A DNA stretch of 64,000 nt from Eledone cirrhosa (Eukaryota). Under the pieces are notes generated by a model. That model was not told the origin of the DNA, did not search any database, and saw nothing but the letters and a program-made list of their open reading frames with translations. The translations under genes and the position numbers were made by a program. Position 1 is the first letter of the stretch. Each line of letters starts with the position of its first letter. Of the stretch, positions 257 to 54,130 are shown in pieces. Location: positions 32,021 to 96,020 of the forward strand of contig CAXHJY010001727.1 in assembly GCA_964016885.1 (NCBI GenBank), read 5' to 3'.

Positions 257-760
257 GATATATATATTGTATTTTATCTGATGAGAGCGTACCAAAATGT
301 TGATAAATATGGTTTTATAAAGATAGTTTCCATTTATTAATATCATTGATATTATACTCCAGAAGAAAGGCTGTAGAGTGCTTCGAATCTGTTATAATTA
401 AATTTGTTGAATAACCAACAAATTAAATACCTCTTTGCATATACATATATATATATATACATATATATATACATATATATATATATATATACAAATATAA
501 TTTCAGCGAGATTGCATTTCGACTGTGGTAAAAAAACAAAGCGAAACGCAATTTTCGAGATATGCGACAAGCGCTCAATGAACTAAAAGAAGACCAGAGC
601 AGTTAACATACGTTATAAAGGCCAAACAAACTGAAAACGGCGGTCATGAAGCTATCAGCCACCGGAGCCGAAAAAACGAAGCATGCTAAACAGGTTAAAC
701 AAAAAAATTTACCTGGACCTCCTGGAAATTGATGGTATAATCCATATATATATATATATA

Positions 761-1550
761 TACAGGGTGCGGACGGTATTTAACCACACATGTATTTTTA
801 GTCATTTTATTTGACTAATTTTTATTGAACTTCCATTTCAGAAAATAACAATGAAAATAACTATGCTTACTAATGAAATGAAAAGGCATGCTGTGATTGT
901 GGCTTTGAAGGCTAAGCATGGGGATTTAGAAATTTCGTTTTCTGAAAGTTGCAAGATCTTTTGTCCACAAGATTCGGTGTGAGTTAGAGAAAGAAGATGG
1001 AAGCGTATTACCTGTATCAAACGTAAAAAACATTCCAAACACTGGGATTCTATCAGGACACCTGAATTTATTCAGGAAGTTAAACAAAACATTGATGACA
1101 ATTCAGGAAAATCAATGAGATCAATTGCAAAAAAATGGTGTCAGAAAACACAGAAATGTTGTGTATGAAGACATCAGATACAAATCTTACGTGATGAGAA
1201 GAGGTAAATTCATGTCAGAAAAAACAAAAGAAAAGCGTTTAATCAGATCCAAAAGACTTTTAAACAAACTTAAAAATCCATCAGAAGATGGTGTGATTTA
1301 TTTTTCTCAGATGAGAAAAACTTTGACCAGGACCACAAAACTAATAGAAGAAATGACAGGTGGCTATGTGCAGACCCTTCTGAGGTTCCAAGAGTAATGC
1401 ACACAAAATTTCCTGCAAGTGTCATAGTTTTGGGTGTTGCTAGCAATGAAGGACATGTGATGCCTCCTCACTTTTTTCCACAAGGCCTTAAGGTGAATGC
1501 TGCTGCATATATTGAGGTTCTGGATAAAGTTGTTAAGTCTTGGATCAACA
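761..1550 (+). mobile_element. Decayed Tc1/mariner transposon, 3'-truncated
   Basis: Starts TACAGGGTG after (TA)n. Frameshifted transposase reads MKRHAVIVALK...RTPEFIQEV...YKSYVMRRG...FSDEKNFDQD...NDRWLC...HTKFPASV...GHVMPPHFF...YIEVL. It is interrupted by a PLE fragment. Confidence 0.85.
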
Positions 1551-49141: not shown

Positions 49142-51258
49142 TATGTATATATACATATACATATATACATACATATATATACACATACATATATATATAC
49201 ATACATATATATATACATACATATATATATACTTATATATACATGTATATATATACATGTATATATATACATATATATACATACATATACATGTATATAT
49301 ATACATGTATATATATACATATATATACATACATATACATATATATATATACATACATATACATACATATATATACATACATATACATACATATATACAT
49401 ACATATATATACATATACATACACATATATATACATATATATACACATATATATACATATATATACACATATATATGTATATATACATATATATATACAT
49501 ATATATACATATATATATACATATATATACATATAGATATATACATATATATACATATAGATATATACATATATATACATATATATGTATAGATATATAT
49601 ACATATATATACATATATATATAGATATATATACATATATATACATATATATACATATACATCTATATACATATACATACATATACATCTATATACATAT
49701 ACATATATATACATCTATATACATATACATCTATATACATATACATCTATATACATATACATATATATTATACATATACATACATATATACCTATACATA
49801 TATATATATACATATACATATATACCTATACATATATATATACATATATATATATACATATACATATATATATACATATATATATATACATATACATATA
49901 TATATACATATATATATATACATATACATATATACCTATATACATATATATATACATATACATATATACATACATATATATATACATATTTATATACAAA
50001 CACATATATATATATATAAATACATATATATACATATATATAATATATATACACATATATATATATACATATACACACATATATATATATATATACATAT
50101 ACACACATATATATATATATATACATATACACACATATATATATATACATATACACACATATATATATATTCATATACACACATATATATATATATACAT
50201 ATACACACATATATATATATATACATATACACAAATATATATATATATACATATACACACATATATATATATATACATATACACACATATATATATATAT
50301 ACATATACACACATATATATATATATACATATACACACATATATATATATATACATATACACATATATATATATACATATACACATATATATATATACAT
50401 ATAACACATATATATATATACATATACACATATATATATATACATATACACACATATATATATATACATATACACACATATATATATACATATACACACA
50501 TATATATATATACATATACACACATATATATATATACATATACACACATATATATATATACATATACACACATATATATATACATATACACACATATATA
50601 TATATACATATACACACATAATATATATATACATATACACACATATATATATATATACACATATATATATATACATATACACACATATATATATATATAC
50701 ACATATATATATACATATACACACATATATATATACATATACACATATATATATATACATATACACATATATATATATACATATACACATATATATATAT
50801 ACATATACACATATATATATATACATATATATATGTATATATATACATATATATACATATATATATATATACATATATATACATATATATATATATGTAA
50901 TATATACATTATATACATATACATATATATATATATACATATATATATATACATATATATATACATATACATATATATATATATATACATATATAATATA
51001 TACATATATATATATATACATATATATATATATATACATATATATATACATATACATATATATATATATATACATATATATATACATATACATATATATA
51101 TATATATACATATATATACATATATATATATATACATATATATATATATATATACATATATATATACATATACATATATATATATATATACATATATATA
51201 CATATATATATATATATACATATATATATATATACATATATATATACATATACATATA

Positions 51259-54130
51259 TGTAGGAGGTGAGTTTTATTGTAGTACAATAAAGCAATGCAG
51301 ATATCGGATAAGAAGCACTCTACAGTTTGTGGGACTGGAGTATGCATAATATAAGATCAAACTTCGACATCACAATGGGAGCATCCGATTCATCCCAATT
51401 GACTGATTTAATTGGTATCTTCATTTTGAACTCTTTGAGTCGGAAAATTCCTCAACTTCGCGGTGGAATTTATCGTGACGATGGACTCTTTACTATCCTA
51501 AATTGCAATATAGTTAAACTTAATATTATTAAGAACAATATACGTAATCTCTTTAACCAACATAACCTAAAAATTGAATTTGATAATAGTACCAAACTAG
51601 CTAATTTCTTGGATGTATCTCTTAATCTTGACACTGGCCTATATTACCCTTACCATAAAAACAATGAGAATCTTAATTATGTTAACTTTAAATCTAACCA
51701 TCCTACCAATATCAAGAATGCTATAGTTAATAATATTGGAAATAGAATATCTAACATATCTTCTAATAAAAACATCTTTGATGCTAACGCCAATTACTAT
51801 AATAACGCACTTTCTAAAGCTGGCTATCCAGATAAAATCAAATATAATAAAGAAACAAATTCTAGGAAAACTTACAGTAGAATATTTAATCATAACCATT
51901 CCAATAATTTTAATAAAAGACCTAGATACAAAAACATAATCTGGTATAATGCTCCTTTCTCCATCTCTATTAATAACAATATTCCTAAATTATTTTTTAG
52001 TGCCTTAAATAAATGCTTCCCTCCCTCACATATCTATAGTAAAATATTTAACAAACACACCATTAAATTTTCGTATTCTACATCCTCCAATATTTCCAAC
52101 ATCATTTCTAAACACAACAACAAAATATTAAATACTAAATCTCTTCCTTCCAATATTGAATCTCATAATAACAATAATAGTACTCCTGACGTCATTGTAA
52201 ACCCTAGGCTAACTTCTGTAAACCCAAATGCAACGTCAAACACAACTTCGCTAAATGTTCATAATCCAACTCTAAATCAAGAAACTATTATTCCTATTAT
52301 TCCTATCGCAAACAACTTCTCCAATCCAATTCCTTCTATAGATAACACTAGATCACTCATTAATAATCTCTCTAATTGCAACTGCCGCATTAAAAATAAA
52401 TGTCCTCTCAACAACCATTGCCTCGATAAAAACTTAATTTATGAATGTAAAATTATAACTAGCACCAACTCCTTCACCTATTTTGGCTCCACTTCCACCT
52501 CTTTTAAAGCTCGTCTCTATAATCATCATTCATCTTTCAAATACAAACTTAAAAGAACTAACACTGCTCTCTCAGAACTCATATGGTCCTTAAAAGACAA
52601 AAACATTAAATATAACATCTTTTGGAAAAAGATTTCTTCTGCATCCTCGTACTTGAACAGTTCTCTATCTAAAATCTGTAATCTCTGCCTAAATGAAAAA
52701 TTTACCATTATCTCTAACCTAGAATCCATAATAAATAGACGCTCGGATTTGTTTTCCATCTGCCTTCATAAATTCCATAGAACTTTTCACAAAGTATACA
52801 GTTAATATTCAATTCTTTATCAATTTAGAATCTTTTCTCAAAGGCACATATACATACACCTCTTTAAAATATACCCATCTACCTTACTTTAAAGGGCATT
52901 ATATACTCTATAGTACTCGTTTATTCATTTACCTCATCCTATCTTCTCGTAAAACAATAACATTTGTTTTTGACATTTTGAATATTCATCCGCAATCATT
53001 ATTATTTTTTTTTCCCTCTATCATAAATCTTTTTAATCTCAATTTCATCCTTAATTTATTATTATATATATTTTTTTTAATATATACTCATATATTCTTT
53101 AAAATATACCCATCTACCTTACTTTAAAGGGCATTATACACTCTATAATACCCGTTTACTCATCACCCTCATTATATCTCTTCGTAAAACAATAACATTT
53201 GTTTTTGACATTTTGAGTATTCATCCGCAATCATTATTATTTTTTCTCTCTATCATAAATCTTTTTAATCTCAATTTCATCCTTAATTTATTATTATTAT
53301 TTTTTTCTCCCCATCAACGAACTCATTATTAATACATATGAATTCAATATAAATTTTTCTCAAATCCTATACATAAACATTTTCTCTTTGCTAATTTTAA
53401 GATTCCTACATTTCTCCTTTTGAATATTCACCCACAATTATTATTTTTTTCTCTCTATCTCCATACATAATCTCCCTTCGTTATTTTTTTCTCTCTATCT
53501 CCATACATAATTTCCCTTCGTTAATTTTCAAATTCCTTTAATTTATACATTATCTTCCAACGGTTCCCAACCTCTCTATATTAAAACATTATATCTTTTT
53601 CTCAGTTATAAAAACTATCTCTTTCTCTCTATCACCCATCTCTCCCTTTCCACCTTCACTCTCATCTCCTCCCCTTTTTTTCATCCTTTCCACCCCCACC
53701 CCTCCCTAAATATAATATATTTTTTCCTCGCACATATCCTCCCTTCGTTAATTTTCAAAATTTTTAATTTATACAGTATCTTCCAACGGTTTTCAACCCC
53801 TCTATATAAAATATATCTCCTCTCTGTTATAAAAACTATCTCTTTCTCTCTATCACCCATCTCTCCCTCTCATCTCCTTCCCTTTTCATCCTTTTCTCTC
53901 CCCCCCTCTCTAAATAAAATATTTTTCCCAATATCACACATCAATCTAAAACCACTTTTCATATGTTGATTTAAAACTGCACTATCAACAAGTGTTTTTT
54001 TAGCCTTCATATCATGTTCTCCTGTTTTATCTGATGAAAACACAAATATTATTGTTTGATGATGTTTGTTTTTGAAATGCGCATAATAAAATATATTGAA
54101 CTCCTTTAACCATCTTTTGATCTTATATTA
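51259..54130 (+). mobile_element. Penelope-like element: inverted 5' tail (51259-51361), RT and GIY-YIG ORF (to 52805), long 3'UTR and hammerhead-containing pLTR
   Basis: FDITMGASDSSQLTDLIG, GGIYRDDGLF, NFLDVSL, YVNFKSNHP, CNCR..CPL..C and IYECKI...TYFGST. TAATATAAGATCAAA at about 51347-51361 is the reverse complement of the element's 3' end. Confidence 0.93.
54024..54092 (+). ncRNA. Minimal type I hammerhead ribozyme
   Basis: TTTTAT-CTGATGA-long stem II-GAAA-TGCGCA-TA-ATAAAA; predicted cleavage after 54085. Confidence 0.88.

Follow-up and report, generated by a model that had tools for sequence, protein, structure and literature searches.

A covarying bulged hairpin occurs twice in the leaders of Hydra-clade Penelope-like elements and borders both ends of their insertions

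Introduction

Penelope-like elements (PLEs) are retroelements whose reverse transcriptases (RTs) form the sister group of TERT. How PLEs integrate, with a tail at one end only and with inverted repeats, is a long-open question. Here, we analyse a 64,000-nucleotide (nt) stretch of the Eledone cirrhosa genome (GCA_964016885.1, contig CAXHJY010001727.1, positions 32,021 to 96,020 of the forward strand; hereafter the window), in which a small bulged hairpin recurs in PLEs of the Hydra clade. The hairpin is present as two copies (hp1 and hp2) in the 5′ leader of these elements, its stem covaries, and the 3′ ends of their insertions fall close to the first base of one copy or the other.

Cis-acting RNA structures that recruit an element's own RT are known from the R2 3′ untranslated region (UTR) core and from the 3′ stem-loops of L2 and of short interspersed elements (SINEs); these are situated 5′ of the start and become part of the copy, whereas the Hydra hairpin would lie 3′ of the start and be left behind. 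In the twin priming of L1, two priming events lead to an inversion, the second occurring at scattered internal sites and giving arms without overlap, whereas Hydra PLEs use a fixed second site and have overlapping arms. The hepadnaviral epsilon stem-loop and the telomerase template-boundary element are likewise small bulged or stem elements that position an RT on its template; unlike these, the Hydra motif is paired, the ends lie outside and 5′ of its stem, and it gives no sign of priming in the bulge or of protein priming.

The Hydra clade of PLEs with a C-terminal endonuclease was defined by Craig et al. 2021 (PMC8557442), and the elements studied here share its RW(K/R/T) and DKT motifs, CxCX5C linker, CxxC/CxH residues, hammerhead and (TA)n targets. 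In the accessible text of that paper, hammerheads alone are listed and the word 'hairpin' does not occur (PMC8557442). A tail on one of the two inverted pseudo-long terminal repeats (pLTRs) is already known descriptively (PMC3846280; PMC8557442); it was given as 30-40 bp and endonuclease-made (PMC8557442), whereas the tail found here measures 55-99 nt, which is the hp1-hp2 spacing.

The sole in vitro study, by Frangieh et al. 2024 (PMC11167929), concerns the Poseidon element PAc, an anole PLE. Its RT has two internal start sites, one on either side of the tail, and extends both target strands; it depends on RNA lying 3′ of the start but not on cleavage by the hammerhead. PAc thus shares with the model proposed below two starts 3′ of the hammerhead that bracket the tail, the use of both strands and the need for 3′ RNA. 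It differs in that its start sites lie inside the open reading frame (ORF), and the accessible text describes no conserved RNA motif, paired signal or other signal that sets the starts (PMC11167929). By eye, and not by computation, the printed PAc template holds a 3′-bulged hairpin of unrelated sequence near ORF +121..147, a short way 3′ of the start at +111-118.

Results and Discussion

The Hairpin Belongs to Hydra-Clade PLEs

A first-pass annotation of the window had reported six copies of the hairpin and two half-sites, and we confirmed their positions, stems, loops and 2-nt bulges. Five window copies fit the pattern ACTC-N9..32-TNGAGTRCY, for which shuffled sequences gave a mean of 0.09 and never reached five in 100 shuffles. 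The G-C form of the pattern adds two full copies that had been overlooked, 570-600(-) and 43392-43411(-), where none is expected. The six copies noted originally represent six distinct families or subfamilies, and the arm spacings of the window copies range from 16 to 33 nt.

The same excess was found in the 3.0-Gb E. cirrhosa genome, where TACTC-N9..30-TNGAGTGCT has 63,169 matches versus 823 for the reversed pattern. A G-C pair at the lower-stem base gave 18,060 matches (control 913) and a further form of the pattern 6,557 (control 151), compared with 5,625 matches (control 2,929) for a mismatched lower-pair combination. The matches, more than 80,000 in total, span many families and are not equivalent to independent events. 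A double-hairpin pattern (3,659 versus 575) is dominated by one satellite array and is not used as evidence.

The hairpin belongs to Hydra-clade PLEs, with the consensus RCTC-Y-stem/loop-R-TN-GAGYRCT. The copy at 51314-51342 is a member of the young family A, which occurs as tandem 3,896-bp units composed of a hammerhead core, 57 nt, the hairpin, 71 nt and an 821-aa open frame. These elements have a single ORF encoding an RT plus, at the C terminus, a GIY-YIG endonuclease, with a CxCX5C linker, CxxC and CxH around a conserved E and N, no CCHH, an RWK-type motif and DKT in place of DKG; the pLTR carries a hammerhead (predicted by pattern, without an Rfam score) and insertion is into (TA)n. The marks RW[T/R/K], SDKT, YRDD, CxCx5C, CxxC-E and N..CxH were present in all six E. 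cirrhosa ORFs examined. The family A unit exceeds the size generally given for the clade (<3 kb) because of its long 3′ UTR.

Among the elements examined, the motif was found only in the Hydra clade. It was absent from all six loci of three Neptune-type families of the same genome, some of which lack a full leader. Such Neptune-type elements (L309-L314) coexist with the Hydra PLEs and have long ORFs, with a frame of up to 1,096 aa. In the supplement of Craig et al., six 9-letter terms for the 3′ half gave four matches in the Hydra consensi and four in the Naiad and Chlamys files, which are far larger; by eye, none of the latter has the 5′ arm, although line breaks can hide matches. Published coral and sea-cucumber Hydra consensi show, by eye, the fold with the G-C base: the motif was seen in Hydra-2_Amil, Hydra-1_Ajap (twice, before the ORF) and Hydra-2_Ajap, an imperfect copy was seen in Hydra-1_Crog, and the Hydra-1_Amil consensus stops short of the motif position.

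A non-coding family, J (494-742(-) in the window; L286-L308, for example L298), is made up of units about 570-620 bp long that often stand in tandem. Neither a Hydra ORF, by tblastn, nor a canonical hammerhead core was found in it, although a variant core may be present. Family J keeps hp1 with a covarying stem and stops before a degenerate hp2. It is likely a non-autonomous, retrozyme-like partner of Hydra PLEs.

The motif has no counterpart in Rfam. Nine loci with both hairpins gave a single, unrelated match in Rfam 15 (E 1.5), and among the best 150 of 920 Rfam matches of the window, which are dominated by microsatellites, there were repeats and a tRNA. A description of the motif was not found in the accessible PLE literature, including PMC4209133, PMC6765202, PMC2377424, PMC13282606 and bioRxiv 10.64898/2026.07.22.740005; a prior mention in Repbase or Dfam notes, which lay outside the search, is possible. 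The motif is thus apparently an undescribed, paired RNA element that extends across the Hydra clade and belongs to none of the RNA families tested.

Structure and Covariation of the Hairpin

A metagenome scan yielded 77 loci (from the best 80 of 331 confirmed matches), which form 61 clusters at 75% DNA identity. From 39 clusters, 79 distinct cores were collected solely through the anchors RCTC and GAGYRC, a few long ones probably by chance. Pairs were counted with anchored scripts, as the 5′ arms did not align across loop lengths in MAFFT. Anchored cores were found 87 times in the sense and 10 times in the antisense orientation of the leaders, compared with a shuffle mean of 4.5.

If the bulge is taken as 2 nt, the first upper pair is formed in 74 of the 79 cores (C-G 52, U-A 21, U-G 1; 73 Watson-Crick), whereas bulges of 0, 1, 3 or 4 nt allow it in only 2, 3, 10 or 24. 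The second upper pair is formed in 54 of 78 cores and uses all four Watson-Crick types, with U-U frequent at this position (13). The bulge begins with U in 76 of the 79 cores, as in the six window copies, and a U directly follows the motif in 72; positions -5 to -9 before it are A/T-rich. On a tree of 49 RT segments, built from the relatives found here only and excluding rows without an hp1 call or shorter than 170 aa, C-G and U-A alternate 9-10 times, with 4-5 switches forced by well-supported branches, and the first upper pair is Watson-Crick in 48 of the 49 rows. The bulge and the variable yet paired upper stem described in the first-pass annotation both hold well beyond the window. Its nearly invariant lower stem does not: TACTC is the form of one E. 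cirrhosa clade on the tree, and GCTC/GAGC is commoner across hosts. In the predicted fold of the family A leader (z -1.86), hp1 is present in the minimum-energy and centroid structures, and hp2 is represented by its lower stem alone. Among the sequencing runs searched, none of RNA was listed as containing the sequence, which counts neither for nor against the fold.

Other origins of the conservation were considered. Chance was rejected by the shuffles and the reversed-pattern controls, and protein-coding constraint was rejected, the motif preceding the AUG and the arm spacings in the window sharing no frame. A double-stranded DNA site is unlikely, given the wide range of loop lengths (3 to about 70 nt) and the covariation of the paired bases.

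In one metagenome locus (L157:437-463), hp2 has exactly the same upper stem and loop as family A hp1 (51314-51342), although the RTs of the two elements are distant.

Two Hairpins Lie in Tandem between the Hammerhead and the Start Codon

The motif was found within 260 nt of the ORF start in 38 of the 43 metagenome loci with a recognisable start, and 23 of these have two copies. When the leader included the hammerhead, two copies were present in 16 of 19 cases. Both copies lie in tandem between the hammerhead and the start codon: in the metagenome loci, hp1 lies 46-68 nt past the hammerhead core, and hp2 lies 55-83 nt past hp1 and 8-40 nt before the ATG. In read-through copies from seven E. cirrhosa families, the distance from hp1 to hp2 is 67-99 nt.

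Insertion Ends Fall at One Hairpin or the Other

We then mapped the 3′ ends of insertions relative to the hairpins. Among 159 de-duplicated ends in the E. cirrhosa loci collected, 147 lie at -12..+2 nt, counted from the first base of either hairpin, and most of them at -2 to -7; among those followed by an alternating repeat the figure is 133 of 136. The two -12..+2 ranges cover about 30 of 180-280 nt. Both repeats are present in 25 metagenome loci, of which 11 reach the contig end and two read through; in nine of the other 12, the sequence stops 0-8 nt before a hairpin. The short, fixed offset between end and hairpin holds across seven families and in other hosts. Bulge-templated priming of the epsilon kind does not fit these ends, which lie 5′ of the lower stem and not at the bulge.

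Family C was chosen for a prediction test before any read-through was known there. At the end of its tail, 95 of 100 rows enter TA repeats, and all five others show hp2 3-7 nt further on (one of the five with a mutated 5′ arm); the five loci, when fetched, lead to a Hydra-type ORF.

In inverted insertions, each of 41 distinct outward end pairs from families A, C, D, E and F, two of them inside the window, consists of one hp1 end and one hp2 end. For the 29 pairs from loci that had not been picked for an intact family hairpin, independent choice of the two ends would have a probability of at most 0.5^29. Neither this one-of-each rule nor a link between it and two copies of one structure was found in print.

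One explanation is that the hairpins serve translation control or ribonucleoprotein (RNP) assembly near the AUG, and that the ends are set solely by AU-rich microhomology with (TA)n. The position of hp2, 8-40 nt before the start codon, and the A/T-rich positions -5 to -9 would agree with this, as would the precision of the ends even where hp2 is degenerate. However, many TATA/ATAT sites in the leader are unused (21 positions in family C and 13 in family D), the offset is constant across families and hosts, non-coding family J retains hp1, and the one-of-each rule is not predicted. We consider this explanation distinctly improbable.

The first-pass annotation had instead placed the function of the hairpin near the new RNA 5′ end after self-cleavage, as an epsilon-like priming or boundary element. 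In its favour, about 35-60 nt separate the predicted cleavage site from hp1 on its 3′ side. However, the inserted sequence continues upstream across the uncleaved hammerhead into the preceding ORF, and the 5′ boundaries of the arms are not clustered at the cleavage site (0 of 19 in family A), which disfavours a post-cleavage role. Cleavage was also dispensable in the one PLE studied in vitro (PMC11167929), and hp2 is left unexplained, so that this proposal now appears very unlikely indeed.

Alternatively, the hairpins could function in single-stranded DNA (cDNA), or in a template of antisense polarity, and direct cutting or resolution by the GIY-YIG endonuclease, the ends then reflecting nuclease processing and not RT initiation. 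This would fit all of the end-mapping data equally. In the accessible literature, the tail has been credited to endonuclease-mediated resolution (Craig 2021, PMC8557442), the Penelope tail has been reported as necessary for endonuclease recognition (cited in PMC11167929), and antisense self-priming has been proposed for head-to-head repeats (Arkhipova 2013). Moreover, G-U and A-C combinations are equally frequent in the stems (3 versus 3), so that this count fixes neither the folding strand nor the choice between RNA and single-stranded DNA. On the other hand, RT was mapped in vitro to start at the tail boundaries of the Poseidon PLE (PMC11167929). In addition, the inserted DNA does not contain hp1 at the tail-less end, so that hp1 must exert its effect within the template or some longer intermediate. 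We regard nuclease processing as unlikely.

A Model for Hairpin-Directed Starts

From the conservation, covariation, pairing and position of the hairpin, the mapped ends and the one-of-each rule, we infer an RNA that folds, is bound by protein and directs RT initiation, and a likely order of events. The hairpin is probably a protein-recognised RNA signal, two per leader, just 5′ of which the RT/GIY-YIG protein starts cDNA; judged from sequence, it would work like an RT-positioning signal. That part of the first-pass annotation which proposed a PLE-linked RT/endonuclease signal is supported by the leader position, the covariation and the end mapping; it had overlooked the paired copies, the marking of the insertion 3′ ends and the restriction to the Hydra clade among the elements examined.

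In this model, the template would be a tandem, uncleaved transcript with the order hammerhead, 45-70 nt, hp1, hp2 (55-99 nt past hp1), 8-40 nt and AUG. Each motif would comprise a lower stem of 4 bp (RCTC/GAGY) and, on its 3′ side, a 2-nt bulge whose first base is U; a Y-R pair would form the base of the variable upper stem, and RCU would follow unpaired as the 3′ flank. The bulge and this flank are the parts through which the protein may bind. From a nick in the (TA)n target, cDNA would start a few nt 5′ of the hairpin, on an AU-rich stretch. A start at hp1 would give a tail-less end and leave hp2 available for a second start on the other target strand, and a start at hp2 would copy hp1 and the spacer and give a tailed end. 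With one cDNA start placed by each hairpin, the pair would supply both of the start sites that delimit the PLE 'tail', and each target strand would have one of them. For an inverted insertion, each site of a single RNA would be used once, on a different target strand, either by two protein molecules or by successive use, and the two cDNAs would join head to head. We give about even chances to this full scheme of programmed twin priming, in which the tail, the head-to-head repeat and both insertion ends are written in one two-hairpin RNA. Other PLE clades may do likewise with different hairpins, for which the bulged hairpin beyond the PAc start is a lead.

The retention of hp1 by the non-coding, tandem family J counts in favour of a hairpin that directs the start. 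Several observations, together with the even G-U and A-C count, weigh against it. Twelve of the 159 E. cirrhosa ends and three of the 12 metagenome ends fall elsewhere, and the end positions are ranges because the ends lie in AT-rich microhomology with the target. Of the 43 ORF starts from metagenomes, five lack a copy and 15 have a single one, some of these leaders being truncated or chimeric, and no copy was recognisable by eye in the Hydra-1_Obim consensus. The ends are still precise where hp2 is degenerate (family F, with a short stem and no bulge), very long (family D) or irregular to degenerate (family J), and where hp1 is imperfect (family E). Finally, no read-through to hp2 was found in 100 rows of family H; by eye, 98 of these enter simple repeats, one joins the hp1 of another family and one enters unrelated sequence.

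The junction between two families (G000:C1:271532840-271532904) is chimeric, with a family H tail fused to family C hp1 a few bases before the hairpin.

A clade-wide covarying hairpin of 20-30 nt that is present twice and predicts both insertion ends makes the question of the start sites directly testable, after an in vitro study that found two internal starts and, in its accessible text, no signal setting them (PMC11167929). The paired hairpins may explain the odd 'tail' and the inverted ends of Hydra PLEs. If the model is correct and extends to other PLE clades, priming from twin hairpins would be a general mechanism for the third class of retroelements, and about 20-30 nt would suffice as a portable start signal for an RT related to telomerase. 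Since PLE RTs are sister to telomerase RT, a defined template-positioning RNA would also bear on the evolution of RT-RNA recognition. In practice, the motif marks the boundaries of Hydra PLEs and their non-autonomous partners.

Hydra PLE Fragments in the Window

The following PLE features were identified in the window:

355-382 (+): hp1 within a Hydra PLE fragment (279-435) that resembles family C, which it matches at 76% over 303-429
279-435 (+): layout of this fragment, a hammerhead with the GAAA half deleted, then the tail and a (TA)n end at 436; family C read-through elsewhere reaches hp2 and the ORF
570-600 (-): extra hairpin of the GCTC..GAGCGCT form in a non-coding family J fragment (494-742)
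1554-2105 (-): 5′-truncated RT fragment of Hydra family B, 85% to L272
2109-2193 (+): inverted tail arm of family B, with hp1 at 2109-2150 (5′ strand clipped), tail and (TA)n at an hp2-type site
2557-2568 (-): 3′ half-site without a 5′ arm
27887-28011 (-): family F fragment, 98% to L256, with hammerhead core 27988-28011, hp1 27924-27946, tail and hp2-type (TA)n end
32058-32155 (+): family-C-like hammerhead and a tail-less end just short of the expected hp1 start (related copies compared by eye)
40886-41125 (-): family H fragment, with hammerhead core 41028-41102, hp1 40932-40960, tail and repeat end
41980-42449 (-): family I, with hp1 42009-42048, tail to 41980, hammerhead core 42302-42358 and an insertion at about 42106-42286 (uninterrupted copy, L281)
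43392-43472 (-): family I read-through piece, with the hp1 3′ half at 43449-43460, tail and hp2 43392-43411
44037-44254 (no strand assigned): short inverted family A insertion, with an hp1-type end at 44037, an hp2-type end at 44254 and a hammerhead core at 44088-44135 (-)
51262-51361 (-): inverted arm of family A, with hp1 51314-51342, a 51-nt tail and an hp2-type (TA)n end at 51262
51360-54128 (+): 5′-truncated Hydra-clade RT-GIY-YIG ORF, 99% to L051, with the frame open to 52802, then 3′ UTR
3′ part of the 51360-54128 element (+): hammerhead core 54031-54078 and an hp1-type, tail-less (TA)n end

The hairpin had been placed about 20-70 nt 3′ of a hammerhead. This is so for the 27946 copy (41 nt from the hammerhead core) and the 40960 copy (67 nt), but half of the hammerhead is deleted beside the 355 copy, and an insertion splits hammerhead from hairpin at the 42009 copy. 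A (TA)n-type repeat follows 30-75 nt 3′ of nearly every full copy. In the 2109 copy, the inversion junction clips the hairpin and removes its first bases, family B homology beginning at 2109. As for the six divergent PLE-type elements described earlier, read-through into a PLE ORF was not found for the 40932 and 42009 families, whose identity as PLEs thus rests on the hammerhead, the hairpin and the (TA)n end. One of the two half-sites (43449-43460) is accounted for as family I hp1, and the other (2557) has no 5′ arm.

Other Repeats and Satellites

Microsatellites make up 25.8 kb of the window. Degenerate TA/TG/CA arrays of up to 3.9 kb (19320-31877, 44255-51261 and 54129-59400) adjoin several PLE ends and could be either targets or products of extension by the elements. 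A hammerhead-like core at 41372-41431(+) is not followed by the motif and may belong to another PLE clade. At 2838-2910(+), a tRNA-like sequence (Rfam tRNA, 55 bits) heads a SINE-like repeat, a relative of which is the insertion at 42106-42286 that splits the family I leader. Transposon-like fragments at 765-1564(+), 12147-14118(-), 17947-19400(-), 34269-36604(+), 37090-37545(+), 48212-49064(+) and 60078-60941 read, from translations judged by eye, as Tc1/mariner transposase, piggyBac-like transposase and several LINE RTs.

Elsewhere in the genome (G000:C1, from about 14,235,000 to beyond 14,260,000; L122-L148, L279, L280), 58-bp units, each made up of a single hairpin followed by about 25 nt and some TA, repeat in tandem over at least 25 kb. 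The last unit enters a family-G-like tail and (TA)n, and the satellite was apparently born from a Hydra PLE leader, through unequal exchange or repeated copying.

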